From an uncultured candidatus Porisulfidus sp. (GTDB lineage: Bacteria > Pseudomonadota > Gammaproteobacteria > Poriferisulfidales > Poriferisulfidaceae): a DNA stretch of 64,000 nucleotides. Under the pieces are notes generated by a model. It saw only the letters and a list, made by a program, of their open reading frames with translations, was not told the DNA's origin and did no database searches. This document shows positions 4,712 through 61,049 of this stretch, in pieces (the first letter of the stretch is position 1; the number at the start of each line of letters is the position of its first letter). The stretch spans positions 672,001-736,000 of the forward strand of contig OZ241993.1 of assembly GCA_965204575.1 (NCBI GenBank), in the 5' to 3' direction. The translations under genes and the position numbers were made by a program.

Positions 4712-4766
4712 GTTTTTAGGTAATCAAAAGTTTGTTTGATTTGTCGGCGGTGTTGGTTCCATAACA

Positions 4767-6149
4767 ATGCCAAGAATCTCACATGACTGGAAAAGGTGGA
4801 TCGACCGATATACTGCGGATGGAAGTTATTGGTACGTGCCCAAGGGTAGAAGTATCTCCGATATTGAAACAATCCAGCAACAATTAAGGGTGCTTGCCCA
4901 GCTTGAAGGCAAGAAATGGAGGCAAGCACAACGTCCTTATATCAACAAGTTGATACGAGAGAATCTTTCGGAGGCGCGAGCTCGAGACGATGATCGAAAA
5001 GGTATTCCTATGGCTCGAATGCTTGCGAAAGTCTTTGAATTACTGGGATTTGCGTGGGTGGATGAAGACGAGGCCATTGTTCTAACTCCGGCGGGAGAGA
5101 AATTCATAGCATCGACTAACCCAGAAGCCGTTGTGGCGAGACAATCGAGGCGTTACCAAGTTTCCAATCCGGTTTTTGGAATGAGTTCGACCAAAGGGGT
5201 ACAAATCCATCCAGTACCGTATTTGCTTGAGATTTTATTGCAGACAAAGACCTTGACGAAGCTAGAGTATGTCCTTTTTTGTGCCAAGGCGAAAAGTTAT
5301 GGAGATGTTGATGATACTGTTGAGGGAATAAAAAAGTGGCGCAATATTGGCCCACGGTATCAGCAGACAATCATAAAAACATTAGAACAGACTACCATTT
5401 CCAAACCTCCGAATCGCCGAAAGTCCATCTACAACACGGTTAACTTGAACGCACCCTATGCGCTTGCCTTTTGGACCGCATCGAAATTGATCCAAGCCAT
5501 TCACCGAGATGGGGAAACTCTTTACAAGGTCGCTCGCGGCAAATATTCAGAAGTTCGTTCTCTCGTAAAGCAATCTCAGCGTGACGGGCAATACATCTTT
5601 TTTGAAAGCGCTAAAGATTGGGTGGCCTTTTATGGAGATCCCGAAAAGGCCCACACAAAAATGTCGGCACTGTCTTACTATTCGGATGTTGCTGATTTCG
5701 ACAGAGTTCGGGCTGTGCTCGATGAGATGCACGGCTATACCTCTCGTGAGAAGCAAAAGTATATTGAACTGATTGTCGAAGAAAAAACTGTCGAAGACAT
5801 CTTAGAAAGCAACATCGAATTAGTTGAGCCTGGCATGAGATTACTTGAGCGCCAAAAGCAGACCGAAATCGGACGCATTGATTTATTCGCCCGCGACAAA
5901 GAAGGTGTTTATACGATTATTGAATTAAAAAAGGGGAGAACTGATGACCGTGTATTTGGGCAGTTGTCCCGGTATATGGGTTGGTGCAAGAAAGTGAAGT
6001 CTAGGTCTAACCAAGTTCGTGGGATCATTATCGCTAAGACAATTGGGGAAAAATTGTGGGCTGCGGCTGATGGGCACGATACCCCTGTTGAACTTATGGA
6101 ATATGACTTGAAAATGAGTTTGGATAAAGCTCAGCGATCTATTTCTTGA
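4767..6149 (+). CDS. Putative restriction endonuclease: AlwI-like N-terminal region plus C-terminal NucS/DUF91-like PD-(D/E)XK domain
   Basis: C-terminus GRIDLFARD...IIELKKG...GQLSRYMGW...VRGIIIA resembles NucS/EndoMS C-domains; N-terminus LGFAW..LTPAGEKF...IHPVPYLLEIL resembles REase recognition domains; lies downstream of the MTase. Confidence 0.7.
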   Translation: MPRISHDWKRWIDRYTADGSYWYVPKGRSISDIETIQQQLRVLAQLEGKKWRQAQRPYINKLIRENLSEARARDDDRKGIPMARMLAKVFELLGFAWVDEDEAIVLTPAGEKFIASTNPEAVVARQSRRYQVSNPVFGMSSTKGVQIHPVPYLLEILLQTKTLTKLEYVLFCAKAKSYGDVDDTVEGIKKWRNIGPRYQQTIIKTLEQTTISKPPNRRKSIYNTVNLNAPYALAFWTASKLIQAIHRDGETLYKVARGKYSEVRSLVKQSQRDGQYIFFESAKDWVAFYGDPEKAHTKMSALSYYSDVADFDRVRAVLDEMHGYTSREKQKYIELIVEEKTVEDILESNIELVEPGMRLLERQKQTEIGRIDLFARDKEGVYTIIELKKGRTDDRVFGQLSRYMGWCKKVKSRSNQVRGIIIAKTIGEKLWAAADGHDTPVELMEYDLKMSLDKAQRSIS

Positions 6150-6283: not shown

Positions 6284-7054
6284 ATGCACGGCATTGATAA
6301 TCTGTTGCAGATCATGCGGGACCTGCGGGATCCCGACCATGGCTGTCCGTGGGACTTGCGCCAGGATTTCAGGACGATTGCGCCCTACACGGTGGAGGAG
6401 GCTTATGAGGTGGCGGATGCCATCGAGCGGGAAGCCTGGCATGAGTTGCGTGGCGAACTCGGAGACCTGTTGCTACAGGTGGTGTATCACGCGCAAATGG
6501 CCGAGGAGAAGGACCTGTTCCGTTTCTCCGACGTGGTAGAGGCGATCTGTACCAAGATGGTCGAACGACACCCGCATGTTTTCGGGGAGGTCGGCCAGCG
6601 CAACGAGGATGAAATCAAGGCGGACTGGGAGAGGCGCAAGCATCGCGAACGGGCCGAATACGGAACGTCAGGCGTACTGGGGGGCGTGCCGAAGACGCAG
6701 CCGGCGCTGACGCGGGCGTTCAAACTGCAGAAACGCGCCGCACGGGTGGGGTTTGACTGGGAGGAAGCCCAGCAGGTGGAGGACAAGATCGAGGAAGAGT
6801 TGCGCGAATTGCGCGAGGCGCAGGATGCAGATGAGCGGGCCGCGGAAATTGGCGACCTGCTGTTCACCCTGGTGAACTATGCGCGCCATTGCGGCCTCCG
6901 TCCGGAGGAAACCCTGCACCGCGCATGCTCGCGGTTTACGCGGCGTTTCGAATCCATGGAGGCACGCCTGCAGGAGAGCGGCGAGGCGGTGGAGACGGTG
7001 TCCGCCGAGCGTTGGGAAGAATTATGGCAGGAGGCGAAGCGCGCCGAATCCTAG
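6284..7054 (+). CDS. mazG: Nucleoside triphosphate pyrophosphohydrolase MazG
   Basis: LRDPDHGCPWD, EEAYEVADAI, ELGDLLLQVVYHA, second EIGDLLF repeat. Confidence 0.96.
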   Translation: MHGIDNLLQIMRDLRDPDHGCPWDLRQDFRTIAPYTVEEAYEVADAIEREAWHELRGELGDLLLQVVYHAQMAEEKDLFRFSDVVEAICTKMVERHPHVFGEVGQRNEDEIKADWERRKHRERAEYGTSGVLGGVPKTQPALTRAFKLQKRAARVGFDWEEAQQVEDKIEEELRELREAQDADERAAEIGDLLFTLVNYARHCGLRPEETLHRACSRFTRRFESMEARLQESGEAVETVSAERWEELWQEAKRAES

Positions 7055-24439: not shown

Positions 24440-25600
24440 CTATCGCACTTCGGATTCTTCGGTCAGAACATCCAGGTATTGCTGGTGGCCAAAGAGACGA
24501 TTGCGTTTCTTCCCGGTCAGTTCGTGCACAATGCCAAGCTGCTCCAGCAATTTCACCCCGGCGGCTACGGCCGTATATGAAAGCCCCGTGTTTCGGGCCA
24601 TCTCCTGGAGGGATGCGATAGGGCGTTTTTGCAGCACTTGGTGTACTCGGAGCGCCGACCCGGCTTTGCGTCCTTCCTGCTGAATTCTTGCCCGGTCCTG
24701 TTCGAACATGTCGAGTAGACGCCGCGCGGTGGAGACGGCCCCTTGGGCGGTTTGCGTCACGCCGTCGAAAAAGAATCTGAGCCATGCCTCCCAGTCGCCG
24801 TTCTCCCTCACCTCATCGAGGAGTGCGTAGTACCGGTCCCGGTGCTGCTTGAAATAGAGACTCAAGTATAAAAGTGGCTGGCGTATGACGCCCGCGTTGT
24901 ACAGCGCGAGAGTGATCATCAGGCGGCCGACCCGGCCATTGCCGTCCAGGAACGGATGGATGGTCTCGAACTGGACATGGGCGAGACCTGTGCGCAGCAG
25001 TACCGGCAACCCATGCTTTTCGTCGTGGTAGAACTGCTCCAGGTTGCCCATGCAGGTTTCGACGTCATGGGGGGGCGGAGGCACGAAGCGCGCCCGTCCA
25101 GGGCGTGTCCCGCCGATCCAGTTCTGCGTCCTGCGGAATTCTCCCGGCATTTTTTCGCTGCCGCGGCCGTGGCTGAGCAACTTGCCGTGGATTTCTCGGA
25201 CGAGCCGGTTGCAAAGCGGGAACCCCTCCTCTAGTCGGAAGATTCCATGTTCCAACGCCGCGACATAGTTCGAGACTTCGATGACGTCGTCCAAGGGAGC
25301 GCCGGGTGCCTCTTCGAGCTCGAAGAGCAGAAGATCCGACAAGGTGGACTGGGTGCCCTCGATCTGAGAGGACAGGACCGCTTCCTTGCGCACATAGGTG
25401 TAGAGGAACTGGTGCACGTCAGGCAGGAGCGTGGACAGGCTGTCCAGTTGGCCGAGTGCCAGCAGTGCTTCTTCCATGGATCCCTGGAGAACGCCCAGGT
25501 CCAGCGAGGGCTCGGGCGGAAGAGGGTTGGGCACGAAAGCGCGCACCGTTTCACTGCCGGTGTGGGTGGTACTGAACTGGCCTGTGGGTCCCCGCCTCAT
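24440..25600 (-). CDS. Fic family protein with C-terminal HTH
   Basis: Catalytic HPFLDGNGRVGR; N-terminal autoinhibitory SSQIEGT motif. Confidence 0.93.
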   Translation of the reverse strand: MRRGPTGQFSTTHTGSETVRAFVPNPLPPEPSLDLGVLQGSMEEALLALGQLDSLSTLLPDVHQFLYTYVRKEAVLSSQIEGTQSTLSDLLLFELEEAPGAPLDDVIEVSNYVAALEHGIFRLEEGFPLCNRLVREIHGKLLSHGRGSEKMPGEFRRTQNWIGGTRPGRARFVPPPPHDVETCMGNLEQFYHDEKHGLPVLLRTGLAHVQFETIHPFLDGNGRVGRLMITLALYNAGVIRQPLLYLSLYFKQHRDRYYALLDEVRENGDWEAWLRFFFDGVTQTAQGAVSTARRLLDMFEQDRARIQQEGRKAGSALRVHQVLQKRPIASLQEMARNTGLSYTAVAAGVKLLEQLGIVHELTGKKRNRLFGHQQYLDVLTEESEVR

Positions 25601-25853: not shown

Positions 25854-25927
25854 GCGGGTGTAGTTCAATGGTAGAACTTCAGCTTCCCAAGCTGATAACG
25901 AGGGTTCGATTCCCTTCACCCGCTCCA
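25854..25927 (+). tRNA. tRNA-Gly (CCC)
   Basis: GCGGGTGTAGTTCAATGGTAGAAC...TTCCCAA anticodon loop...GGTTCGATTCCC...CCCGCTCCA, 74 nt. Confidence 0.97.
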
Positions 25928-27472: not shown

Positions 27473-28518
<1,046 letters not shown>

Positions 28519-28519
<1 letters not shown>

Positions 28520-29652
28520 TGCCGGCGGCGCGCGACGCGAAGACCCGCCTGGCACAGGCCCGCACCCGGTTGGTCCTGGATCGACCTTTCCTTGGCGCCC
28601 TGGTGCTGCAATTGCCGCTGGTGGAAGAGGAGGACTGGTGCCGCACCACTGCCACCGACACACAGAGTTTCTACTACAACCCTGCCTATATTGATCGTCT
28701 GACCGGTGAGGAGATCCAGTCAGTACTCTGCCATGAGGCTCTCCACTGCGCGCTGCTGCACTTGCATCGGAAAGGACACCGCGTACGGGGACGCTGGGAC
28801 GTCGCCTGTGATTATGCGGTGAATTGCCTGCTGGTCGCCGAGGACATGGTGCTCCCCCAAGGCGCCTTGTACGAACCGAAGTTCGCAGATCTTACAGCGG
28901 AAGAAATCTATCCTTGCCTTGACGAAATGGAGGACAAGCGGACCCAGGACTTGCATCTGTACAGCGATTCGTTGGGCCGGGAAGATCCGGCGGCCGGACC
29001 CCGCCCCCTCAGTTCGGCAAAGCAGAATGCCATGGCGGCGACCTGGCAAGCCCGGGTTTCGCGCGCCCTGGATGCGACTCGGCAGGCCGGGCGCCTGTCC
29101 GAGAGCTTCGAGCGGCATTTCTCCCCGCAACTGATGCCGCGCCTACCTTGGCGGCAGTTGCTCGCCCGTTACACCGGTGCGCTGGCACGTGACGACTACA
29201 GTTACCAGCGCACTTCGACGCGACGCGAAGGCCCTGCAATCTACCCAAGCCTCCGTGGGCGCGAAATCAATCTGGTCACTGCACTGGATGTCAGCGGTTC
29301 AATCTCTGATGCCGAGATCGCGGAATTCGTCGGCGAGGTCAACGCGCTCAAAGGAACCCTTCGCGCCCGCATCACGCTGCTGGCGTGTGATCAGGAACTG
29401 TCCTCGGAAGGCCCGAAAGTGTTCGAACCTTGGGAGACGCTGGAGCCTCCGACCCAAGTTAGCGGCGGCGGTGGTACTTCGTTCCGGCCAGTCTTCGAAT
29501 GGGTGAATCGTCAGGACCGAATGCCGGACCTGCTGCTGTATTTCACGGATGCCCGGGGCCGTTACCCAAAGACCGAGCCGCCTTATCCGGTACTGTGGCT
29601 GGTCAAGGGCCGCGCGCCCGTGCCGTGGGGCGAGAGAATCCAGTTGAACTGA
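28519..29652 (+). CDS. DUF2201-type metallopeptidase-like plus VWA domain protein
   Basis: HEALH (HExxH), MIDAS DVSGS, GGGGTSFRPVF, YFTD. Confidence 0.88.
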
Positions 29653-32142: not shown

Positions 32143-32239
32143 TTGCAAACGGTCTGTACAGGAGAAAGCCCGTACCCGGGAAGACTGAGTGTACGACTAA
32201 AATCCAGACTGAATCGTCTCGGTTTTTTCGCCTTTGAAG

Positions 32240-33970
32240 ATGTCCGGCTCTATCCGTTGGTATCAAGAAAATTCGGGGCATGCCGCGAAACGGTACGAAA
32301 TGGCTGCTGCGGGAGACATTCATGGTTGGCTGACAAGGTTTTTGCCGGAAAGTCCCGCGCGGGTTCTGGATATCGGCGCGGGTAGCGGACGGGATGCAGC
32401 CTGGTTGGCCGGACTGGGTCACCGAGTGGTGGCGGTGGAGCCTTCTTCGGCGATGCGGAAGGAAGCAAGGAGGCGACACCCCGAGCCGAAGATTCGATGG
32501 ATGAACGACCGCCTGCCTAGTCTGGGCCAGGTTTCCCGACAGGAGCCATTCGACCTGATTTTGCTCAGCGCAGTGTGGATGCATGTGGCGGAATCCGACC
32601 GCAAGCGGGCATTCCGGAAAGTTATCAACCTCCTCAAGCCGGGCGGGACTCTCGCCATTACGCTGCGTCACGGCCCTCCGGACCTAGAACGAGGGATCCA
32701 TGCTATATCCGAGGAGGAACTGAAAGACTTGGCCCGCGACCATGGAGCCTTCGTGGCGTACCGGGGCGAGAGCGGAGATTGCCTAGGACGGAAAGGTATC
32801 CGCTGGATTCAAGTCGCGATCCGGTTTCCGGACGACGACACTGGTGAGCTTCCGCTTTTGCGCCACATCATTCTCCAGCAGAGCAAGAGCGCGACTCACA
32901 AGCTGGGTCTGCTGCGCACGTTGTGCCGGATCGCGGACGGTGCGCCGGGTAGCGCCCGAGCCAATAACGACGGCAGCGTCAGCATCCCGATGGGCTTAGT
33001 GGCTCTGACTTGGCTTCGGCTGTACAAGCCGCTGCTGAACAAGAGACTTCCTCAGCGCCCATTCGGTGGTCGGAAACCTCCGGGCCTAGGCTTCGTGAAG
33101 GCTGCCTACCGGGAGATCGAGTCGCTGTCGCACCTCGACCTGCGGATGGGCATGCGTTTTGGCGGGAGACAGGGGTCCGTCCTGCATCAGGCGATCCGAG
33201 ATGCAGCGAACAACATCAGGGACATGCCGATCAAGCACATGACCTATCCGGGCGGGGAGCAGAAACCGATACTTCGGGTTTCCCCCGGCGCACGAACGCG
33301 CAGGACGGGCGAGGTCCTGCTCGACGAAGACTACCTGTTCGGTTTTGGTGAGGTCCGAGTTCCGGAAGCCCTGTGGCAGGCCCTGCGCAAGCATGCGTTG
33401 TGGGTGGAGCCGGTAGTAATCTCGGAGTGGACCGAAATGATGCGGGTATATACACGAAGGCAGGAAAAGGCGGTCGACGAGAGCGAACTCAGGGACGCCA
33501 TGGTCTGGGCAGACCCGGAGCGGGACGTGCGGGATTCCCGCGAGCGGGCGAAACGCCTCCTTGAGAATCGGGAACTGTACTGCGTCTGGAGCGGAAAGCG
33601 CCTCAGAACGGCATGGGACATTGACCACTGCCTGCCGTGGTCGGTATGGTCGTGCGGCGACCTGTGGAACCTGATGCCGGCGAATCGCGACGTAAACCAG
33701 AACAAGAAGAAAGACCTCCTGCCCAGCGAACCCGTCATGGACGAGGCCCACGACCGAATCCTGGACTGGTGGGATCGCGCCTATTTCCGGGACGATTCCC
33801 CCATGAAAGAAAGATTCTTAGTGCAGGCGGTCTCAAGCCTTCCGGGCATCCGGCGGGAAGAACGTTCTCTCGATCTTGAGGAGATCTTCGAATCGGTCTG
33901 CCTGCAGCGGGCGAAGCTCAGACGTGACCAGCGGGCGCCGGAATGGGTTGGATTGATTGAAGACATTTAA
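32240..33970 (+). CDS. Class I SAM-dependent methyltransferase fused to a C-terminal HNH endonuclease
   Basis: VLDIGAGSGRDA, LSAVWMH; C-terminal CVWSG..DIDHCLPWS....LWNLMPA...VNQNKKD. Confidence 0.85.
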   Translation: MSGSIRWYQENSGHAAKRYEMAAAGDIHGWLTRFLPESPARVLDIGAGSGRDAAWLAGLGHRVVAVEPSSAMRKEARRRHPEPKIRWMNDRLPSLGQVSRQEPFDLILLSAVWMHVAESDRKRAFRKVINLLKPGGTLAITLRHGPPDLERGIHAISEEELKDLARDHGAFVAYRGESGDCLGRKGIRWIQVAIRFPDDDTGELPLLRHIILQQSKSATHKLGLLRTLCRIADGAPGSARANNDGSVSIPMGLVALTWLRLYKPLLNKRLPQRPFGGRKPPGLGFVKAAYREIESLSHLDLRMGMRFGGRQGSVLHQAIRDAANNIRDMPIKHMTYPGGEQKPILRVSPGARTRRTGEVLLDEDYLFGFGEVRVPEALWQALRKHALWVEPVVISEWTEMMRVYTRRQEKAVDESELRDAMVWADPERDVRDSRERAKRLLENRELYCVWSGKRLRTAWDIDHCLPWSVWSCGDLWNLMPANRDVNQNKKKDLLPSEPVMDEAHDRILDWWDRAYFRDDSPMKERFLVQAVSSLPGIRREERSLDLEEIFESVCLQRAKLRRDQRAPEWVGLIEDI

Positions 33971-34326
33971 ACAACGCCCCCCTCCCGATAGGGTTTTCCA
34001 TGCAAGGTTCGTTTGCCTGGTAAATTCCACAGGCTTTTGAAGGGTGGCGGCTAGCAGGCCGACAGGCCGGAATTCCAGCATTATGGCGGCTCAATGGATG
34101 TTTTTAGCGGTAGTGATTTCTGCAGTGCGGTGGATTGCTGCTTTCCGGACAAAGGAGCCAGACAAATTCGTGCGATAATTCTTTGCCCAGAAACAATAAA
34201 ATTGAAATATTGTTAATCAGGTTCCCGGCAATATGAAAATTTATATTATTTATCAATATTTTGCGGAGATCTCGATTTGCATCTAAATCTAAATTCGGGC
34301 TGTGAACAATATTTAGAAATCATGTG

Positions 34327-35451
34327 ATGCGTTCATACCAAAGTTTGATTGACCGGCCTAACTCCGCGCCTCTAGAATGGCAGGAGTCTTGCACACATAG
34401 CGAGTCGACGTTACACCAACTTTCACCATATATTGGGAAATTGAAAAGTTCCATCGCTCGTGACCTAGTTTCAGAGTATTCGAGAAGAGGAGAAATAGTT
34501 GCAGATGTTTTTTGCGGCAGTGGCACAATTCCGCTTGAATGTGTTCAGATGGGACGGCGAATCTTTGCGTCAGATGCTAGCCCTTATGCGATAACTCTTA
34601 CTAGAGGAAAACTGAATGCTCCTTGTGATCTCGAAGAGGCAAATAAAGCGTTGGATAAAGCGCTAAAAGCCGCACAATCATGCCAAATAGATCTTCGCCG
34701 GGTTCCAGGTTGGGTGCGTAGTTTCTATCACCCTAAAACACTCAAAGAGATTTTAGGGTTACTCACAGTACTGCATAAGCGCAAAGATTATTTTCTCCTG
34801 TCTTGTTTGCTGGGCATTTTGCACCATCAACGCCCAGGATTCCTGTCTTTTCCGAGCAGCCACCTTGTTCCCTATCTTCGCTCAAAAAAATTTCCGCAAG
34901 ACGATCATCCTGAGATGTATGAGTATCGAAGTGTCCAACCGCGTATTAAAGCGAAAGTTGCACGAGCTCTTAAACGACGCAAAAAAATAGATACTAGTCT
35001 AGTCGTTGGAATTCGCCGATCGACAATTGAATTTTTGACCTCGCCTCGTACGGTAGATTGCTTTATTACAAGTCCGCCCTACATGAATGCGCTTGATTAT
35101 GGGCGTGACAACCGCCTGCGAAATTGGTTTTTATCGGGAAGCACCCAGGAACACATTGATACGCGATTGGCTAGCGATGCAGATTTTCGTCGCATGATGT
35201 CGTCCTATGCGCGAATACTTACAAAGACCTTAGTTAAAGGTGGACGGTGTGTGTTTGTGGTGGGTGAAAGGGCAAAACGGAATGGGAAACGATCCCCATC
35301 AGAAGCGCTCTCAGAAGTTCTAGAGAAATTTGCACCAAATTTAAGAATTAAGGAAATCATTAATGATCAAATCCCTGATATTCGTCGCTCGCGGCGTAAT
35401 TTTTCTGGCGTGAAAATGGAGCATATCCTCGTTTACGAACGTCATTGCTAG
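34327..35451 (+). CDS. DNA amino-methyltransferase (alpha-class order, probably N4-cytosine)
   Basis: LHQLSPYIGK, motif I DVFCGSGT near the N-terminus, motif IV ITSPPY near the C-terminus; AT-rich. Confidence 0.88.
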   Translation: MRSYQSLIDRPNSAPLEWQESCTHSESTLHQLSPYIGKLKSSIARDLVSEYSRRGEIVADVFCGSGTIPLECVQMGRRIFASDASPYAITLTRGKLNAPCDLEEANKALDKALKAAQSCQIDLRRVPGWVRSFYHPKTLKEILGLLTVLHKRKDYFLLSCLLGILHHQRPGFLSFPSSHLVPYLRSKKFPQDDHPEMYEYRSVQPRIKAKVARALKRRKKIDTSLVVGIRRSTIEFLTSPRTVDCFITSPPYMNALDYGRDNRLRNWFLSGSTQEHIDTRLASDADFRRMMSSYARILTKTLVKGGRCVFVVGERAKRNGKRSPSEALSEVLEKFAPNLRIKEIINDQIPDIRRSRRNFSGVKMEHILVYERHC

Positions 35452-35452
35452 C

Positions 35453-37942
35453 ATGCGCAAATACATGCCTGATTCTCAGCACTTTTTAGGCCAAGTTTTG
35501 CCTGAATTCCCAGATCATGAAATTGTCGATCTGATTGGTTCTGGTTTCAATGGGCATGTATATCGAGCACATGCACCAAATATCAAAGGTGATTTAGCTT
35601 TCAAATTCGTGCCAACAGAAAACCTTCCCTCGGATCCCGAACAGCGTAATACTTACTTGACCGAGGCTAGAAAGGCTAATCTATTGGAAAATGAAAATGT
35701 TGTTCGGTGCATAAGTGTGCTTCCGTGGGAGGACAAAGCCTTAAATAGGACTTTTGTTGTGTTTATCCTTCCTTATGTGCCGGGCAAGTCGCTAGCAGAG
35801 TACATAAAGAACAACCGAAAAAACATCAGTATTGCATTTGTTGAAAACTTCCTTCTAACAATGTTCAACTTGCTTCACGAGCTTGGTCTGCGCAACATGG
35901 AACACAATGACCTGCATTCTGGGAATGTGCTTGTTTCTCAATCTCAATATGATCTGAGTGGCAAAACGACATTTCGAATCACGGATTTTGGTGTTGCAGA
36001 GGTGACAGAGACTCACCATCCTAACGACTATTTGTCCGTCGCGAGGATGCTAAAAGACCTACTAGGGAACATTGACTACCAAGAGCAACAATCACGTGAT
36101 CGTTATGTATATGAAATATTGCGAACTGACTTCTTAGGACGACACCTGATTGAAACGGACCCATTGGCTGATTCATTAGCGAGGAATGCGAGGGGACTAG
36201 CTGAAAAGCTAAACTCCATAGATGATGATTTTCGTGAAGCTAATAGAGAGCATACAGTCACTCAAATGGAAACACCATTTGACTATCCGAATTGTGAACA
36301 GATGGGCAATTCTCATCTACTACTAAAAAATTTGTATTCGGACCAATTGCTAGGGCTAGATAAGATTCGCGAGCGATCAAATCTCGTACTTACCGGACCA
36401 CGAGGCTGTGGCAAAACGACGGTTTTTCGAGCGTTGAGTTTAGACTATAAAACCTCTACGGATGAAGACCATCCTTCTGAAATCCAGTTCATAGGTGTTT
36501 ATTATCGTTGTGACGACTTGTATTTTTCATTTCCACGCTACGAATTGCCAGCAAGACAAGAAGCTATTGACATCCCGATGCATTTTGTCGTTGCCACCCT
36601 TATGGCAGAGACTTTACAGCATTTGAGCAGTTGGGGGAGGAAGTTTTTTGCAGAAGAATTTCAACAAAAAGAGCCAATTGCGGCTAAAAAATTGTGGGGA
36701 ATAATTGGACTTAACCAACCCATGGACCCATCCGCCGGACAGTTTGCGTTATTGGTTAATAGCCTTATAAAGCAACGGAAGCGTGCAGCCAACAAACAAC
36801 GTGTTTGTCATGACCCCTCTCATCCAATCAAAAACTACGTGGGGCCAGAGGCGCTATTTAAATTCTGTTCGGCACTCAGATCCACATTTTCCTTTTTAAG
36901 CGATCGTCCTTTTTTCTACTTTATTGACGACTATTCGATGCCGAAGATTACATCAAACTTGCAACAAAATTTAAACAGACTATTTATGCATCGAGATGCT
37001 GACGTGTTTTTCAAACTGTCTACAGAAAGCCCCGTTTCATTCGAACGAGGCGATATAGACGAAAAACAGTATGTAGAAGAGCGTGAATACGATCTGCTGA
37101 ATTTGGGATTGCGCTATCTTGCAAGTGATGGAAAACAAGTACAGACATTTCTTACTGATCTCTTTCAGCGCCGTTTTCACGCTGCTAGAAATTTTCCATG
37201 CGATTCGCTTGCTGAATTGCTTGGGGATAACCCTAGAAATGAAAATGATAATGCAAGAAAAATCAGAGAGAAAAAAAGGCATAACACATACTGGGGAGTT
37301 CAGACAGTCACCGCGATGTGTAGCGGCGACATTCATTACATGATTCGACTTGTCGGAAAGATGGTCGAAGATGCAGGCGATCTTGATTCGCGCAAAGAAA
37401 TCCCTCGTATACTATCGGACCGACAGTCTGAAACAATTCGAAAAGCAGCAGGTGAGTTTATGGAGTCTGTCCGAAACTTGCCGCGTCATGGAGAAAAACT
37501 AGCGCGAATAATTACTGCACTGGGAAAAGTAGCTAGTTCGTATTTACGTTATCGCAATGCACGTAATGTGACAGGGAGCCCGCCGCATCAAGCGTCGAGA
37601 ATTGAACCATATGGCCCTTTAAAGTTATCGGATGATGCCCAAAACCTATTGAACGACTTAATCCGATTTTCTATCCTAATGATGGATCCTCGTGGAAAGA
37701 GTCGCCGTGGAGACGTTGTTCCCCGACTGTATCTCAGACGTTATCTATTGCCACATTTCAATCTCACATTCAGTAAGAGAGATTCCCTTCAACTAGAAAA
37801 TACTGAGATCGAATTGCTCCTAACTGACCCAGATCTTTTTGAAAGACGAAAATGTATTAGAAGTGCTCGTGATTCAAAGGCAAAAGAGCAACAAAGCCGA
37901 AGTCAGGAAAATTTATTTGATGAGAATAGTAATGGAACGTGA
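35453..37942 (+). CDS. Ser/Thr protein kinase fused to a P-loop ATPase (ORC/CDC6/STAND-like)
   Basis: GSGFNGHVY, AFK, HNDLHSGN, DFG; then Walker A GPRGCGKT and Walker B FYFIDDY. Confidence 0.85.
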   Translation: MRKYMPDSQHFLGQVLPEFPDHEIVDLIGSGFNGHVYRAHAPNIKGDLAFKFVPTENLPSDPEQRNTYLTEARKANLLENENVVRCISVLPWEDKALNRTFVVFILPYVPGKSLAEYIKNNRKNISIAFVENFLLTMFNLLHELGLRNMEHNDLHSGNVLVSQSQYDLSGKTTFRITDFGVAEVTETHHPNDYLSVARMLKDLLGNIDYQEQQSRDRYVYEILRTDFLGRHLIETDPLADSLARNARGLAEKLNSIDDDFREANREHTVTQMETPFDYPNCEQMGNSHLLLKNLYSDQLLGLDKIRERSNLVLTGPRGCGKTTVFRALSLDYKTSTDEDHPSEIQFIGVYYRCDDLYFSFPRYELPARQEAIDIPMHFVVATLMAETLQHLSSWGRKFFAEEFQQKEPIAAKKLWGIIGLNQPMDPSAGQFALLVNSLIKQRKRAANKQRVCHDPSHPIKNYVGPEALFKFCSALRSTFSFLSDRPFFYFIDDYSMPKITSNLQQNLNRLFMHRDADVFFKLSTESPVSFERGDIDEKQYVEEREYDLLNLGLRYLASDGKQVQTFLTDLFQRRFHAARNFPCDSLAELLGDNPRNENDNARKIREKKRHNTYWGVQTVTAMCSGDIHYMIRLVGKMVEDAGDLDSRKEIPRILSDRQSETIRKAAGEFMESVRNLPRHGEKLARIITALGKVASSYLRYRNARNVTGSPPHQASRIEPYGPLKLSDDAQNLLNDLIRFSILMMDPRGKSRRGDVVPRLYLRRYLLPHFNLTFSKRDSLQLENTEIELLLTDPDLFERRKCIRSARDSKAKEQQSRSQENLFDENSNGT

Positions 37943-38996
37943 GGCCATGCTAGAAAAATTGCTCAGACCTGATGAGCAGTTGTCCGCAATTGATTGGCCC
38001 GAACTGATGCCTATCGATAACTTTTCTCTTGGTCCTACAGACTGCCTTGTCGTTGGGATGGGTTTCGAAGAAAGAGCATTGGCTGCACTGAAACAGGCAT
38101 GCCAAACATCAAAAGATTTTCACGTTGTATTAATCCGCTATTTGCCTGAAATCCGGCAAAACAAAGAGGCAGAATGTCTGGATCTTTGTAGAGCTAGTAA
38201 CCTTAATGTCACTCAATTTGAGTATAACCGTGAGCAGCCTTCGGGTATGGGTGTGTCTCTAGCAGATTACGTGTCGAGTTTCGAGCGAATTTTCTTGGAC
38301 ATTTCGGGGATGTCACGCCTGTTGATCGTTCAAGCTATTGTGGCTCTGATTGAGAGTGGTAGAAAATTTCATATCTTGTATACGGAAGCGCAAGTTTATC
38401 CACCGCTCCGAGAAGAGTACGAAAAAGAGCGCGAAAAGGCGAGTGTGGCAGACAACGCGAGCCTTTCATTTATTTCTAGTGGAATTTTTGAGATTGTTTC
38501 AACTCCAGAATTGAGCTCAGCTTTCATGCTAGGAGGGGCTATCCGTCTTATTTCATTTCCATCATTTGATCCTAGCCAATTATCAAATCTTGTCCAAGAG
38601 GTTCAACCCACTCACAACGATGTTGTCCATGGAACGCCTCCGCACGAAGAGATGGTTTGGCGCACAAATGCGATTAGTCAATTGAACGGGTCAACAATGA
38701 AAGCATTGCAACGTGCAGAAAGTCATAAAGCCAGCACTTTAGATTATCGAGAGACGCTCAATCTAATCTTAGACTTGTATCATCGGCACTCGATGTTTGA
38801 TCGTTTCGTGATTGCGCCGACTGGCAGCAAAATGCAGGCTATCGCTATTGGCATTTTACGTGGAGTGCTAGCAGATATCCAGATCGTTTATCCAACACCT
38901 TTACAATTTGTCGAGCCGGATCGCTATACTGAAGGAGTGAAACAGATTTTTCACCTTGCCGTGGATTGTGTGGAAGTTTATCCCGTCCAAGATTAA
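37932..38996 (+). CDS. Hypothetical protein, putative tandem CARF-like Rossmann folds
   Basis: Two half-repeats (VVGMGFEER...FLDISGMSR...ILY and ISFPSFDP...VIAPTGSK...IVY); start overlaps the kinase stop. Confidence 0.6.
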   Translation: MEREAMLEKLLRPDEQLSAIDWPELMPIDNFSLGPTDCLVVGMGFEERALAALKQACQTSKDFHVVLIRYLPEIRQNKEAECLDLCRASNLNVTQFEYNREQPSGMGVSLADYVSSFERIFLDISGMSRLLIVQAIVALIESGRKFHILYTEAQVYPPLREEYEKEREKASVADNASLSFISSGIFEIVSTPELSSAFMLGGAIRLISFPSFDPSQLSNLVQEVQPTHNDVVHGTPPHEEMVWRTNAISQLNGSTMKALQRAESHKASTLDYRETLNLILDLYHRHSMFDRFVIAPTGSKMQAIAIGILRGVLADIQIVYPTPLQFVEPDRYTEGVKQIFHLAVDCVEVYPVQD

Positions 38997-39073
38997 TATT
39001 CATATTGAAATATTTTTTTAGATGCTCTAAATCTGGGGATTACCCTAAATCTCTAGTCTTCTGATTTTGCTTT

Positions 39074-39568
39074 ATGCGCCAACTGATCCTCGTCCGCCAC
39101 GCAAAATCCGATCGCAGCGATTGGAGTGTTCCGGATGTTGAGCGCCCGCTTGCTCCAAGGGGGGAACGGGATGCCCCGGAAATGGGGCGGCGGCTGGCGG
39201 ACCGCCAGAAGGATATCGATGCTTTGTACAGTTCGCCCGCCCGCCGGGCACTCGACACTGCGGAACATTTCGCTTCGGCGCTGGGCATGGACGCGGCGGA
39301 CATCCGCTTGCGGAAAGGCTTCTACACATTTTCGCCCAACGACATGCTTCGGGAGTTGCGCGAACTGGACGATGCTGCTGACCGGGTCGTGGTTTTCAGC
39401 CACAATCCCGCGACCAGCGGAGTTGCCGCTTACTTGGCCAACGAGGTCTTGGGAGACCTTCCGACCTGCGCGGTGGTTCGGCTGGATGTAGATTGCGACT
39501 CTTGGCGGGACCTGGGCCCTGCTGTCTGCACCCTGCGCGAGGTTGACACTCCGAAAAACCCGGCTTGA
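39074..39568 (+). CDS. sixA: Phosphohistidine phosphatase SixA family
   Basis: LILVRHAKS, RPL..RG, SSPARRA, SHNP. Confidence 0.88.
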   Translation: MRQLILVRHAKSDRSDWSVPDVERPLAPRGERDAPEMGRRLADRQKDIDALYSSPARRALDTAEHFASALGMDAADIRLRKGFYTFSPNDMLRELRELDDAADRVVVFSHNPATSGVAAYLANEVLGDLPTCAVVRLDVDCDSWRDLGPAVCTLREVDTPKNPA

Positions 39569-41690: not shown

Positions 41691-42719
41691 TCAGCCGCGC
41701 GGCGGACAGACGTAATCTTTCTGGTACTTGCGGCCATGGGCCAGCAAGGCCCAGGCGATTCTCGCCTGCCGGTTGGCGACTGCCACCGCGGCGACGTTGA
41801 ACGGCTTGTTCCGCTTGATCTTCTCGACCCACTCGGGCAGCTCCCGGCCGTTGGCCAGCAGTGACCGGGCGCCATGGATCAGCAGCGTGCGCAGGTAGCG
41901 GTCGCCCCGCTTGCTGATGCCGAGAATGCGGGTCTTCCCGCCAGTGCCGCTGTGGCGCGGCACCAGCCCCAGCCAGGCCGCGAACTCCCGAGCGTTGCGG
42001 AACGCCCGCGCGTCTCCCGCGGCGGCGACCAGGGCGGTCGCGGTCAGCAGGCCGATGCCCGGCACCTCCCGCAGTCGCCGGCAAGCCTCATGGCTTGTGC
42101 ACCATGCCTCCAGCTTCCGCTCGACCCGCGCAATCGCCTCGTCGTGCTCGTGGACGCGACGCCACTGCGCGGATAACTCTTCCCGACCCATCTCCGGGAC
42201 TCGCCCAGCCAGCCGGTCCAGCACGCCTTCGATCTCCCGGCTCAGCCCGGCCCGTCCTTGCGGCATCACCTCCCCGTATTCGCCCAGCAGGCCGCGCAGG
42301 CTATTGATCGTCGCCGTGCGGAACTTCACCTGCTGCTGCCGCAGGCGGTGCAGCCCCAGAATCATCTGCTGCTCCTCGTCCTTGATCGCCACCGACTTCG
42401 ACCGCGGATGCTGCACCGCCGTCCAGATCGCCCGCGCATCCTGCACGTCGCTCTTGTTGCCGGTGACGAACGCCCGCACCGACTGCGCCGGCAACACGGT
42501 CACCTCGTGTCCCATCTGCCGGAACCGGCGCGCCCACTCCTGCGAACCGCCGCAGGCTTCCAACCCGATCCGGCAGGGCGCCCGGTTGGCAAAGTGCTCG
42601 ACGAACTTCTGCCGCGACAGCTTCAGATCGACCAGTTCGCCGCCGGCCTCCACCCAGTGCAGTTGGAACACGTGCTTCGCGGTATCCACGCCGACCACCG
42701 GTTTATTGCTATACTCCAT
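41691..42719 (-). CDS. IS110 family transposase/recombinase
   Basis: VGVDTAKHVF, GLEACG, KSDVQDA (DEDD RuvC-like); GLVPRHSGTGGK, GISKRGDRYLRTLLIHGAR. Confidence 0.96.
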   Translation of the reverse strand: MEYSNKPVVGVDTAKHVFQLHWVEAGGELVDLKLSRQKFVEHFANRAPCRIGLEACGGSQEWARRFRQMGHEVTVLPAQSVRAFVTGNKSDVQDARAIWTAVQHPRSKSVAIKDEEQQMILGLHRLRQQQVKFRTATINSLRGLLGEYGEVMPQGRAGLSREIEGVLDRLAGRVPEMGREELSAQWRRVHEHDEAIARVERKLEAWCTSHEACRRLREVPGIGLLTATALVAAAGDARAFRNAREFAAWLGLVPRHSGTGGKTRILGISKRGDRYLRTLLIHGARSLLANGRELPEWVEKIKRNKPFNVAAVAVANRQARIAWALLAHGRKYQKDYVCPPRG

Positions 42720-58890: not shown

Positions 58891-59402
58891 GTCGGGTACT
58901 CCAGGTGACGTTTCCGGATGGCGTCGATCATGTCGACCAGCGATAGCAGAAACAATACCACAAAAAGGCCCAGGGTCAGGGCCGGGATGGACAACCCCAG
59001 GAACGTCCACTGGATGGTGCCGCAATCGCCGCTGCCCTGCAGTGCAGACGCCACCGCCCCTTCGAGGCCGACCTGGTCGAGCAGGTGCCAGAACCCTGCA
59101 CCGCAGTCACCCAGAGTGTCCGGCGGGTGGTTCTGGAGATAGACGTGTCGTCCAGCGATTCCGGTCCCGCCCAGGCTCATGACCAGGGCGCCGATGTCGT
59201 AGCCGATCCGATCCCTCGCCCCAGGGCGCTGAAAGTAGGCCAGCGCAAAAATGACGGCCAGCGCGGTGAAGACGAATCGGTCCAGAATACACAGCGGACA
59301 GGGCTCAAGACCCAGGGTGCGCTCCAGGTACAGGTAGCCGAAAGCGAGCGCGGCCACGCAGATGACGAGGCCGACGAGATGGAGGTTTGGAATGCGGTGC
59401 AT
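58887..59402 (-). CDS. dsbB: Disulfide bond formation protein B
   Basis: LEPCPLCI, second Cys pair (DCG...GDCG), W.FLGLSIP; four TM helices. Confidence 0.92.
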   Translation of the reverse strand: MHRIPNLHLVGLVICVAALAFGYLYLERTLGLEPCPLCILDRFVFTALAVIFALAYFQRPGARDRIGYDIGALVMSLGGTGIAGRHVYLQNHPPDTLGDCGAGFWHLLDQVGLEGAVASALQGSGDCGTIQWTFLGLSIPALTLGLFVVLFLLSLVDMIDAIRKRHLEYPT

Positions 59403-59411
59403 CGGTTTTTA

Positions 59412-59765
59412 TTATTGCTTCCCAGTGGCCCACGAAGTCCTAGAAACCCAAATCTTAATTACTGCCGGGAAAAGAAATCCAGTAACAAGCGTCAAATATA
59501 TCGCCAAAGACACATAAGCGATTTGTCCATTTTCAAGCCAAGCAGCTATCCAAAAGAAGGGGGCGACCGGTAGAGTAGCCCAATACAGAGCCATTTCCAA
59601 CATCCACAGATGGAACGCCCAAATAGGGAAGCTCCAGTTCCATGGCCAAGAGGTGTGAATAGTGGCAATCTCCTGTATGCATAGAGGCGCAAGGTACACG
59701 AAAGACATCTGTGCCGCAAAAAGCGCCCATGCTGCCCATATCAGGAACACCAGTATCTTTTTCAA
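59412..59765 (-). CDS. Hypothetical Trp-rich membrane protein
   Basis: 117-aa hydrophobic ORF, AT-richer than neighbours. Confidence 0.45.
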   Translation of the reverse strand: MKKILVFLIWAAWALFAAQMSFVYLAPLCIQEIATIHTSWPWNWSFPIWAFHLWMLEMALYWATLPVAPFFWIAAWLENGQIAYVSLAIYLTLVTGFLFPAVIKIWVSRTSWATGKQ

Positions 59766-59834
59766 GATTGTTTTACTTTGGACAGGCGGCCCGATACTCG
59801 TCCTTGTCCAAGTCTTTACACCATTTGCAGAACA

Positions 59835-60248
59835 TTAACCTATTTTGTCATAGTGGACGAGAGATTGAAGGCCGCTTCTAGGTACAACCAAGGCATCAAA
59901 CATCATCTCTGCGAGATTGCGGCACGAAGACTTCCTCAAGTCGGACAATTCGCAGAAGGATAGTTCCTTTTTCGGCTGTGGTTTCGGTTTTGCCTGCGGA
60001 TATTTCAGTTCGAACAGCCTTTGGGCTTCGCTTTCTTCCTCTTGTTGTCTGAGCCATTCATCGAACTCTTGGTCTCTTTTAGAAATACGTTCTTGTGATT
60101 CTTGATACAGCCTGATTTTTTCATCCAATAGTTTCTGGATTCTTTCCGCTCTTTCCCCTTTTTCATCCTCGGTCGTGTCATCCGCGAAAGCCGGTAACAC
60201 CAAGAATGCACCCGCGAGAACCATGAGCGCTAGCACGATTGGCTTCAT
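59835..60248 (-). CDS. Hypothetical exported coiled-coil protein
   Basis: Signal peptide ending AFA, Glu/Lys-rich helix. Confidence 0.55.
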   Translation of the reverse strand: MKPIVLALMVLAGAFLVLPAFADDTTEDEKGERAERIQKLLDEKIRLYQESQERISKRDQEFDEWLRQQEEESEAQRLFELKYPQAKPKPQPKKELSFCELSDLRKSSCRNLAEMMFDALVVPRSGLQSLVHYDKIG

Positions 60249-60369
60249 CAAAGCGTGGCAGACCTCTTGGCCGCGGAGCAGGCCGTGTACGGCCTGCGCT
60301 TCCGAATAATTGAAAGTCGAAGTTTTATCATGGTCGGAGTAGGGCTTGTTTTGGCCCTGCGGCTTGTGG

Positions 60370-60582
60370 TCAAGCGAACATCAGGCGTTCGCCCTTGGGT
60401 TCGGGGACAGGTCGCCCCAACTCTTGGGCCCGGTCGATCCAGAACTGCATCGCATCGTTGATGTTTTGCAAGGCGGTTTCCTGATCGTCGCCATGTGCCA
60501 TACACCCAGACAACTCGGGGACCTCAGCAACAAATACCTGATCTTCGTTGCTCCAGTAGAGAATGATTTCATATTTGTGCAT
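60370..60582 (-). CDS. hicB: HicB family antitoxin (short form)
   Basis: KYEIILYWSNEDQVFVAEVPELSGCMAHG...WIDRAQELGRPVPEPKG. Confidence 0.92.
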   Translation of the reverse strand: MHKYEIILYWSNEDQVFVAEVPELSGCMAHGDDQETALQNINDAMQFWIDRAQELGRPVPEPKGERLMFA

Positions 60583-60836
60583 CAGATTTCCTCCTCCAAT
60601 CGGTATTTTAGAATTAACTGCCGGACCTGTTTTACTTGATAAGGTTTCACTTGCCCGCCCCGGCTCTGCAAATTGATGAGTTCCACAACGCCTTCCTTGT
60701 CGAAGAGATGGTGACTGCCCCGTACCCGCTCCGAGAAACCTAGGTGGCGTAGCAAGGCACATAGGTCGGCGAAACGGATGTTCGCGTCTGATCGTCCATG
60801 GAGAATAGTCTGAAACAGTCGCTCATGCCGACCCAT
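60582..60836 (-). CDS. hicA: HicA family toxin
   Basis: NIRFADLCALL..LGF.ER.RGSHH.F...INLQ...KPYQVKQVR. Confidence 0.92.
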   Translation of the reverse strand: MGRHERLFQTILHGRSDANIRFADLCALLRHLGFSERVRGSHHLFDKEGVVELINLQSRGGQVKPYQVKQVRQLILKYRLEEEI

Positions 60837-60885
60837 GGCTCGTCTTCCTCAATCCGCTGGAATCAAAAGCCTGCATAAAAATAAG

Positions 60886-60908
60886 TTGTGTATCAAATAG
60901 ATACATAA
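60886..60908. promoter_or_regulatory. Palindrome upstream of hicAB (putative operator)
   Basis: TTGTGTATC-AAATA-GATACATAA, 8/9 inverted repeat. Confidence 0.5.
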
Positions 60909-61049
60909 TCATCGCCGGTGCCGAATAAATACTCATTTTACAGCCGCAAAAGAATAAATTCCAGCCTCGGAGGGAAGAGAAAAATTTGACTTTGCGTGGA
61001 CATTGGGTTGATACAGTTTCCGAAAACAGGCGCAATCCCCTAAACTTAA

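Follow-up and report, generated by a model that had tools for sequence, protein, structure and literature searches.

The three genes and their insertion site

The stretch of DNA analysed here, hereafter the window, comprises 64,000 nucleotides (positions 672,001 to 736,000 of contig OZ241993.1) of an uncultured candidatus Porisulfidus species, the genome of which has been assembled as a single contig of 1.82 Mb and is 98.75% complete; the stretch is present in three DNA sequencing runs, all from one study, and no RNA run was among those listed for it. Between positions 34327 and 38996 its forward strand carries a trio of genes encoding an amino-methyltransferase (gene 1), a fusion of a protein kinase with an AAA+ ATPase (gene 2) and a tandem CARF-like protein (gene 3). 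These three genes are one horizontally mobile module, inherited together, which probably acts in defence against invaders.

The open reading frame (ORF) of gene 1 (34324-35451) has a GTG start, counts 374 amino acids from the ATG at 34327 and ends with a TAG stop at 35449-35451, which leaves one base before the ATG of gene 2 at 35453 (ORF 35453-37942, 829 amino acids); in the public database, gene 2 is entered with the next ATG, 35465, as its start and has 825 amino acids. The TGA stop of gene 2 (37940-37942) overlaps gene 3 by 11 bases if the latter starts at the ATG at 37932, from which 354 amino acids are encoded within an ORF that opens with a TTG (37839-38996) and offers alternative ATGs at 37920 and 37947. 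Both junctions were read directly from the sequence and agree with the tight coupling that an earlier note on this DNA had described, as does the base composition with its description of three co-oriented AT-rich genes, since the five 1-kb intervals from 34001 to 39000 have a GC content of 0.424-0.440, compared with 0.605 and 0.604 in the adjoining intervals and mostly 58-67% elsewhere in the window. The AT-rich intergenic flanks are likewise present, on the left in the non-coding end of the insert (33971-34326), which is AT-rich from about 34140, and on the right in a spacer (38997-39073).

The gene on the left flank encodes a class I methyltransferase of 578 amino acids (32234-33970) and the one on the right a SixA-like histidine phosphatase (39074-39568; His_Phos_1, 5.4e-13). 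Both are host genes that are also found at the empty site of a relative of the same genus (G009), where the orthologues, 67% (methyltransferase) and 86% (phosphatase) identical to those of the window, lie 38 bp apart with nothing between them, so that the trio constitutes an insertion of approximately 5.1 kb. It is present in two of the 16 genomes of the genus, the window genome and G002 (gene 2 was found in one of the 15 others), and occupies the same site in G002, with gene 1 being 86% identical to that of the window.

No integrase and no tRNA was found at the insertion site among the genes of the site and in a tRNA scan, and a promoter and terminator scan of 33900-39150 returned 10 and 5 sites, compared with 9.0 and 4.9 expected, which is chance level. 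A weak 23-nucleotide direct repeat (78% identity) is situated near both ends of the insert, at 34192-34214 and 38995-39017, with ATTGAAATATT as the common part, together with a 19-nucleotide inverted pair (34229-34247 and 38989-39007). Judged by their sequence, these repeats are probably chance matches in AT-rich DNA, or else remnants of the insertion.

The methyltransferase gene

Gene 1 (34327-35451, forward strand) encodes in all likelihood a DNA amino-methyltransferase. Enzymes of this type are defined by a motif I of the form FxGxG and a motif IV of the form (D/N/S)PP(Y/F), and the alpha class carries the target-recognition domain between the two. In the gene 1 product, motif I (residues 62-66, F62-x-G64-x-G66) precedes motif IV (residues 249-252, S249-P-P-Y252) with a conserved insert of 180 amino acids between them, whereby F62, G64, G66 and SPPYM at 249-253 are invariant across 33 sequences, and F62, G64, G66 and S249-P-P-Y252 are at least 90% conserved across 66. 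The Pfam family N6_N4_Mtase (PF01555) exceeds its cut-off in two stretches (40.8 vs 26.7 bits), with its S-adenosylmethionine (SAM)-binding positions 169-216 aligned to residues 42-89, and UPF0020, a methylase family of the RNA N2-methylguanosine type, is also over its cut-off (31.9 vs 22.3 bits). The best PADLOC match is the type II methylase profile MTase_II PDLC03325 (6e-23).

A profile of 33 homologues matched in the PDB the DNA cytosine-N4 methyltransferase 8s9n (8.9e-10), 2zie, DpnA, MboIIA, RsrI, CcrM and PvuII. Only the SAM-binding segment was aligned, and because this segment is C-terminal in those enzymes, the order of the motifs in gene 1 is permuted with respect to the beta class. 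With respect to conservation, a block of 92 residues between the motifs, at the position of the target-recognition domain, is the second-best conserved part of the protein (mean frequency of the top residue 0.70, 25 invariant columns); the SAM region reaches 0.65, and the C-terminal 106 residues are variable (0.44). The idea of a methylase of fixed specificity is weakened by this variable C-terminal part, which could carry the specificity.

The kinase-ATPase fusion

The product of gene 2 (35453-37942, forward strand) opens with a Hanks-type Ser/Thr protein kinase domain (residues 14-268, 35492-36256), in which the glycine loop G29-S-G-F-N-G34, K51, E71, the catalytic loop H151-N-D153-L-H-S-G-N158 and D178-F-G180 are recognized. 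In 20 homologues K51, E71, H151, D153, N158, D178 and F179 are invariant and the glycine loop is invariant or nearly so. Pfam Pkinase matches residues 24-190 (5.7e-16, 59.1 vs 31.7 bits), covering profile positions 3-153 only. When the whole gene 2 model was searched with Foldseek, the top 50 rows were nearly all catalytic domains of protein kinases or pseudokinase domains that match the first 268 residues, among them PknA, PknI, PknB, GCN2 and Stk1 with about 260 aligned columns and a TMt of 0.5-0.67. As the fold match extends over the whole domain and the catalytic residues are conserved, the kinase looks active and complete.

The kinase is followed by an ORC-CDC6-like AAA+ P-loop ATPase (residues 294-601, 36332-37255), which matches PF24389 with 3.1e-45 (155.4 bits vs a cut-off of 27). 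Walker A reads G315-P-R-G-C-G-K-T322 and Walker B D492-D493; TGPRGCGKT and DD are invariant across 26 ATPase sequences, and R317, an arginine inside the P-loop, is invariant in 20 homologues. Compared with the PDB, a profile of the ATPase part alone matched RAD17 (8.6e-5), Rix7, Cdc48 and ORC4 (0.48), and by this measure the domain has no close solved relative there.

Secondary structure of the model and conserved basic residues delimit a helical lid and a basic beta-hairpin region at residues ~655-800 (37415-37852), modelled as a low-confidence fold with a predicted local distance difference test score (pLDDT) of 50-90. The conserved and very basic hairpin lies within the C-terminal 170 residues and contains the invariant residues R716, R747, K749, R752, R758, R762, R763 and R776. 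This basic end is possibly winged-helix-like and nucleic-acid-binding.

The double CARF protein

Gene 3 (37932-38996, forward strand) encodes a protein of 354 amino acids, the whole length of which is filled by two CARF-like domains (approximately residues 36-190 and 200-345), with neither a nuclease motif nor any other effector domain in it. Its AlphaFold2 model, built from 40 homologues, has a pLDDT of 93.8 and a predicted TM-score (pTM) of 0.93. In an exhaustive VIA-align comparison with 48,161 chains, the best match is Can1 (6sce; Z 14.8, root-mean-square deviation 4.9, 238 residues aligned), both CARF domains of which are spanned, followed by Can2 (Z 12.1), Card1, Csa3, VC1899, Csm6, Cam1 and Cad1-CARF and then by SAVED domains (Z 8-9.6). 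Since nothing but CARF or SAVED proteins occupies the first 26 rows, gene 3 is read as a single-chain double CARF protein with no further domain. Foldseek gave weak tandem-Rossmann matches only, Pfam Csa3_N stayed below its cut-off (19.4 vs 27 bits), and no match was obtained with NCBIfam or with the sequences of the PDB. Among the PADLOC profiles, gene 3 matches the CARF6 profiles PDLC01925 (5.8e-17) and PDLC01917 (2.6e-12). Thus, the domain assignments made in the earlier note, an alpha-order amino-methyltransferase, intact kinase motifs joined to a Walker A/B ATPase and a tandem CARF-like protein devoid of a nuclease motif, are upheld, the last of them by a predicted structure.

Residues G44, F45, E46, R48, D123, M127, S128, Y150, Y156, P158, W243 and K300 of gene 3 are invariant, and its conserved motifs are GFEDR at 44-48, D123-I-S-G-M-S-R129 and T-G-S-K300. 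These motifs, including D123-x-S-x3-R129, are placed as expected from the pattern of CARF ligand sites.

A profile search of 1.84 billion representatives assigned 2148 proteins to the gene 3 family at E<=1e-3 and 452 at E<=1e-30, and the best 150 relatives are nearly all stand-alone proteins of 340-380 amino acids. Four of five longer relatives scanned carry or may carry another domain. One is fused to a metallophosphoesterase of the calcineurin-like type (P0139), one to HisKA and HATPase_c of a histidine kinase (P0214) and one, with a partial CARF part, to a TIR domain (P0250); an extension of 385 amino acids in P0251 has no assigned domain. As these fusions come from short metagenome contigs, they may be artefactual; genuine ones would accord with the gene 3 family being a sensor domain.

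Conservation and mobility of the trio

Scoring of candidate proteins yielded at least 667 relatives of gene 2, of which the best 120 align along almost their entire length with 52-100% identity. When one genome was scanned for each species, at least 128 relatives of gene 2 were obtained, the best 80 of which led to the 77 loci counted in the following (designated by L and a number). The three genes are colinear on one strand in the order 1-2-3 in 63 of the 77 loci, and in 53 of the 77 all three reach a query coverage of at least 85%. As order and strand recur in 63 loci, the arrangement is not due to chance, and the conserved trio which the earlier note expected of a neighbourhood survey was found. 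The 14 non-colinear loci are fragments or contig ends (L019, L040, L057, L059, L076), have a broken gene 2 with insertion sequence (IS) elements nearby (L012, L038, L051), have gene 1 displaced or inverted (L062, L065, L068) or are without gene 1 (L070, L074, L075). Identities to the window proteins co-vary across 59 loci (rho 0.93 for genes 2 and 3, 0.78 for genes 1 and 2), values that are descriptive only as the loci are kin.

The carriers are distributed over both prokaryotic domains. Among bacteria they comprise Gamma- and Alphaproteobacteria, Nitrospirales, Acidobacteriota, Latescibacterota, Chloroflexota, Bacteroidota, Myxococcota, Spirochaetia, Gaiellales, Doudnabacteria and Scalindua, and among archaea Halobacteria (Natrinema, Halosimplex), Bathyarchaeia, Methanoperedens, Thermoplasmatota and Methanobacteriaceae. 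Carriers known by strain are Citreicoccus inhibens M34 (L033), Bradyrhizobium sp. Oc8 (L069) and, among archaea, Natrinema zhouii YPL30 (L041). The trio is rare, and in 400 other genomes of the phylum of the host a search with PADLOC profiles did not find it at E<=1e-10. In seven of the seven loci checked, the GC content of the trio is below that of its flanks. Two of three matching IMG/VR contigs contain the trio; the INPHARED phage set gave no match to gene 2.

The trio also resides on a plasmid of Bradyrhizobium quebecense (L093), where the kinase (246 amino acids) and the ATPase (652 amino acids) are separate overlapping ORFs (L093:5030-7725) and where all parts except the methylase are annotated as "hypothetical protein". 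A gene for an Mrr-type endonuclease is found on this plasmid two genes upstream of the methylase. IS or transposase genes were noticed beside the trio or interrupting gene 2 in L014, L027, L007, L023, L031, L034, L051 and L074, and in L014 and L027 gene 3 is displaced by 0.9-1.3 kb.

With respect to gene loss, a broken gene 2 together with an intact gene 1 was observed in nine loci and the reverse in two. A fusion of genes 2 and 3 was not encountered in the 77 loci. Word-based searches for fusions among longer proteins gave one irrelevant match for gene 2 and none for gene 3, which is weak evidence as fusions of about 1200 amino acids are outside the range of these searches; such fusions would fall among the 667 gene 2 relatives, the best 120 of which are listed.

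Relation to described systems

With PADLOC-DB 2.0.0, the run on the three proteins that had been proposed for recognizing a known system yielded component matches only. The most informative is PDLC01925, "CARF6--CARF_STK_AAA", a profile of 1187 positions, to which gene 2 aligns with residues 304-661 at positions 330-681 (1.6e-27) and gene 3, colinear with this match, with residues 35-344 at positions 889-1184. The names with "CARF6" presumably derive from the CARF census of Makarova et al. 2020. A passage of a publication from 2014 describes a family in which a Zn-ribbon, a Ser-Thr-Tyr kinase, an AAA+ domain with an arginine inside the P-loop, a CARF domain and a winged helix-turn-helix (wHTH) domain are fused, and suggests that the CARF domain acts in a kinase-mediated signalling pathway (PMC4012209). 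As both proteins match one PADLOC profile colinearly and the GPRGCGKT of gene 2 fits the family of that passage, genes 2 and 3 represent a split form of a catalogued, uncharacterised architecture. The fused family and the trio share the kinase, the AAA+ domain with the P-loop arginine and the CARF domain in the same order; the former is one polypeptide, whereas genes 2 and 3 are two genes that overlap by 11 bases, and the profile match is remote. A methylase precedes the kinase-ATPase gene here, whereas the passage on the fused family makes no mention of one (PMC4012209).

The earlier note had called the trio undescribed, which is correct in part. The literature search, which covered neither the 2020 CARF census nor the supplements of preprint 10.1101/2024.01.29.577857, either of which might contain the trio, found no paper on the combination of methylase, kinase-ATPase and CARF protein, on its link to ThyX (see below) or on PF24389; with the same limit regarding the census, no named or tested system for the trio and no link of the kinase-AAA+-CARF family to a methylase was found. 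On the other hand, that family itself had already been noted in 2014 and is represented by a PADLOC profile that genes 2 and 3 match. Thus, the parts of the trio are known in kind and partly catalogued, while the combination with the methylase is unnamed.

Phage growth limitation (Pgl)/bacteriophage exclusion (BREX) type 2 shares with the trio a methylase, a protein kinase and a P-loop ATPase in one operon. The portion of PMC12839542 that deals with PglW assigns to it a NERD nuclease, a pseudokinase, a kinase, wHTH domains and a C-terminal inactive STAND/ORC-Cdc6-like domain. A kinase is therefore joined to an ORC-Cdc6-like domain as in gene 2, but in the PglW described there this domain is inactive and C-terminal to the wHTH domains (PMC12839542), whereas the trio has intact Walker A and B motifs and lacks a nuclease. 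BREX is without a CARF protein, which the trio possesses. For PglZ, the absence of which from the locus had already been pointed out, and for BrxC/PglY, no match to the three proteins was among the PADLOC matches listed (for gene 1 the best 25 of 48), and the flanks are unrelated; components of the PglX type, BrxD or helicases were not found at the locus by PADLOC on the trio and a scan of the flanking genes.

MADS is characterised in PMC13662399 as a rare but widespread operon of eight genes (mad1-mad8), including a methylase, a kinase, ATPases and nucleases, which employs N6-methyladenine for the discrimination of self from phage. Methylase, kinase and ATPase are thus common to MADS and the trio, and the gene 2 kinase matches PADLOC mad6 with 5e-17 and gene 1 matches mad2 with 2e-7, in each case over single domains only; the trio has three genes, though, and MADS as described there no CARF component (PMC13662399). 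NCBIfam MAD6 (NF047741) scores 19 bits on gene 2, compared with a cut-off of 460.

Protein kinases also occur as single-gene anti-phage effectors, as with PD-T4-6, and Stk2 is another anti-phage kinase that acts alone. Like gene 2, PD-T4-6 uses a Hanks-type kinase as effector, and its profiles match residues 22-188 with up to 2.2e-14; in contrast to these solitary kinases, the kinase of gene 2 is fused to an AAA+ domain and accompanied by a methylase and a CARF protein. Can1 resembles gene 3 in being a single-chain double CARF protein (238 residues aligned, as given above), and gene 3 shares its fold with Can1, Can2/Card1, Csa3 and Cap4/Cap5 of type III CRISPR-Cas and of the cyclic-oligonucleotide-based anti-phage signalling system (CBASS), but has no fused effector, cyclase or CRISPR context. 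Among the HEC/PDC candidates of PADLOC, nothing better than PDC-S68 (0.034) was matched.

Neighbouring genes

The genes around the trio were surveyed by clustering 678 flanking ORFs and by scanning 120 immediate neighbours of intact trios. In five loci (L006, L012, L013, L016, L021), the trio is positioned inside a type III restriction-modification (R-M) system, with Mod upstream and Res downstream (PADLOC MTase_III 4e-180, REase_III 3e-219). HmaB, the DUF1156 methylase of the Hma system, is encoded directly downstream of the trio in six loci, in three of which the HmaA helicase gene is located upstream (L005, L009, L011) and in three of which HmaA is lacking (L017, L029, L039). Other immediate neighbours are GmrSD with HsdR, HsdS, an MmeI-like enzyme, PIN/HicB, SMODS (L037) and transposases. 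No cas genes appeared among the 120 immediate neighbours scanned, and one of the 120 is a cyclase; the operon itself has none, and searches of the window genome for SMODS, Csm1 and Cmr2 gave 0 matches each.

A gene for the thymidylate synthase ThyX accompanies the trio on the same strand in 14 of the 77 loci (L003, L023, L026, L033, L037, L044, L048, L056, L058, L067, L068, L069, L073, L074), located upstream of gene 1 or downstream of gene 3 and at a distance of at most 90 bp in 12 of them; on the Bradyrhizobium plasmid it follows gene 3 (L093:8905-9828). The assignment rests on Pfam Thy1 (~1e-50), which confirmed 10 of 11 copies scanned, and the RHRx7S signature is present in 12 of 13; the majority of the copies resemble one another as a single group and share a C-terminal extension. 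No ThyX is found in the window genome. ThyA is encoded convergently downstream of the trio in two loci (L064:6066-6857, L066:9769-10563). A dCTP-deaminase-like gene was seen upstream in L066, and Maf and AdoMet synthetase genes are neighbours in other loci.

Where gene 1 is missing, a DruA homologue (PF14236) can directly precede gene 2 on the same strand (L070:1163-2086, 1.6e-40; L075:4680-5840, 5e-89). L070 and L075 are the two most divergent loci of kinase-ATPase and CARF protein. This exchange of methylase and DruA might hint at the function of DruA in Druantia type I.

Proposed function and alternative explanations

The best explanation overall, in which our confidence is about even, is that of a mobile three-gene module most likely protecting the cell from phages or other invading DNA. 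We consider it probable that the module serves in defence against invaders, on account of its horizontal spread, its low GC content and its embedding in type III R-M and Hma loci; a passage of preprint 10.1101/2024.01.29.577857 uses embedding in known defence loci as a predictor of defence function. This context speaks for the defence role put forward in the earlier note, whose model had not foreseen ThyX and DruA as partners and does not explain them.

In the proposed scheme, each functional step of which we infer, gene 1 would methylate host DNA at an exocyclic amino group (N4-cytosine or N6-adenine) and thereby mark self. Gene 2 would be sensor and effector in one, with the AAA+ module and the basic C-terminal domain acting as an ATP-driven switch on unmarked or foreign-structured nucleic acid; switching or assembly would activate the N-terminal kinase, and phosphorylation of host proteins, phage proteins or both would stop the infection, with the kinase taking the place of a nuclease. 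Gene 3 would be a regulatory subunit of gene 2, to which it is fused in other lineages, and a nucleotide-type ligand would gate or reset the kinase. This division of labour between methylase mark, ATPase switch, kinase effector and CARF gate is put forward tentatively. A more specific version, rather doubtful at present, would have the CARF sensor, devoid of a dedicated cyclase, read a nucleotide made by the phage or upon infection, perhaps from the dUMP/dTMP branch, as ThyX and ThyA partner the trio; the kinase driven by the ORC/Cdc6-type ATPase would answer, and a methylase of fixed specificity or DruA would spare the host genome.

Should the trio prove to be a defence, methylation-based self-marking, an ORC/Cdc6-type ATP switch and CARF sensing, so far seen apart, would be united in one compact system that relies on a kinase instead of a nuclease as effector and works in bacteria and archaea. 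CARF signalling would then leave the frame of CRISPR and CBASS, since no cyclase is present, and what CARF proteins outside CRISPR sense would become testable, with the ThyX partner and the DruA swap as leads. If the methylase is indeed of fixed specificity and DruA stands in for it, the function of DruA in Druantia type I would for the first time become approachable. Even if not a defence system, the trio is a widespread, mobile and uncharacterised operon, parts of which appear in public records as "protein kinase" and "hypothetical protein".

Several observations weigh against the defence scheme. The partnerships with ThyX (14 of 77 loci and the plasmid), ThyA (two loci) and DruA (two loci) are unexplained by it, and the CARF ligand has no known source, because there is no cyclase in the operon and none was found in the genome. 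A block at the position of the target-recognition domain that is as invariant as in gene 1 is unusual for R-M methylases, which diversify their specificity, and RNA is a possible substrate of gene 1 given the UPF0020 match. The model of gene 2, built from 20 homologues, is mediocre (pLDDT 72.9, pTM 0.41), and none of the three proteins reaches a curated NCBIfam cut-off. The asymmetry of gene decay is weak, as the lengths of the genes alone predict a ratio of about 2:1 and frameshifts in metagenome-assembled genomes are likely.

The same asymmetry, with gene 1 intact in all nine loci that have a broken gene 2, would be compatible with a methylase that is not a shield but a trigger, whereby a mark that was gained or is missing activates the kinase one round later, as has been suggested for Pgl, or that is the antidote half of a toxin-antitoxin-like pair stabilising the insert. 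Methylase, kinase and ATPase recall Pgl/BREX type 2, PglW as described in the cited portion of PMC12839542 joins a kinase to an ORC-Cdc6-like domain, and the insert is small, without an integrase, and persists at the same site in two diverged relatives. Sequence alone does not separate such a logic from the defence scheme; nevertheless, PglZ, BrxC/PglY and components of the PglX type are absent from the matches listed and the trio often lies inside systems with a methylase of their own, and we regard a trigger or antidote as unlikely. From the embedded copies one may also derive a guard function. PrrC inside EcoprrI is a guard of its restriction system, and in analogy the trio might watch a neighbouring type III R-M or Hma system, with the kinase firing when a phage disables that system. 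The position of the trio exactly between mod and res in five loci and between HmaA and HmaB in three suits this model, but most copies stand alone, the neighbours in the window are host genes also present at the empty site, and even when embedded the trio keeps its own methylase, so that a guard or backup role appears quite improbable.

The thymidylate synthases raise the question whether the trio belongs to immunity at all. If the trio formed a regulatory pathway or one for the modification of nucleotides or RNA, the substrates of the methylase, the kinase and any accompanying thymidylate synthase would be nucleotides or RNA, and a metabolite would be sensed by the CARF protein. Besides the 14 loci with ThyX, its signature kept in 12 of 13 copies and the two convergent ThyA genes, such a pathway would accommodate the dCTP-deaminase-like, Maf and AdoMet synthetase genes found as neighbours elsewhere, the match of gene 1 to RNA methylase families and the invariance of its central block across domains of life. 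ThyX is missing, though, from 63 of the 77 loci and from the window genome, gene 2 is predicted to have a full protein-kinase fold and not that of a small-molecule kinase, the best relatives of gene 1 are DNA N4C/N6A enzymes, and rarity, low GC content, patchy distribution and residence in R-M and Hma operons are traits of defence genes; a role outside immunity is hence improbable in our view. As the nearest structures of gene 3 are CARF domains that bind cyclic tetra-adenylate (Can1, Can2, Card1, Csa3) and a SMODS gene adjoins the trio in L037, the trio could alternatively be a trans-acting accessory of type III CRISPR-Cas or CBASS, with gene 3 sensing cyclic oligonucleotides from a Cas10 or CD-NTase encoded elsewhere and switching on the kinase. 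The window genome without matches to SMODS, Csm1 and Cmr2, the single cyclase among 120 immediate neighbours and the lack of cas genes among them render this very improbable.

Other features of the window

Apart from the trio, a stretch of low GC content (3710-6149, 45% GC) near a tRNA-Asn gene (390-465) encodes a beta-class N6_N4 DNA methylase (3710-4711) and an AlwI/NucS-like endonuclease (4767-6149), which by their sequence probably form a type II R-M system and are followed by a MazG pyrophosphohydrolase (6284-7054). A second stretch (59000-61000, 49-54% GC) harbours a HicB-like antitoxin on the reverse strand (60370-60762) and small ORFs with no Pfam match. A gene for a Fic/DOC protein on the reverse strand (24440-25600) adjoins a tRNA-Gly gene (25854-25927), genes for an AAA/AAA_5 ATPase and then a DUF2201 metallopeptidase/VWA-like protein lie at 27473-29652 on the forward strand, and an IS110-family transposase is encoded on the reverse strand at 41691-42719.

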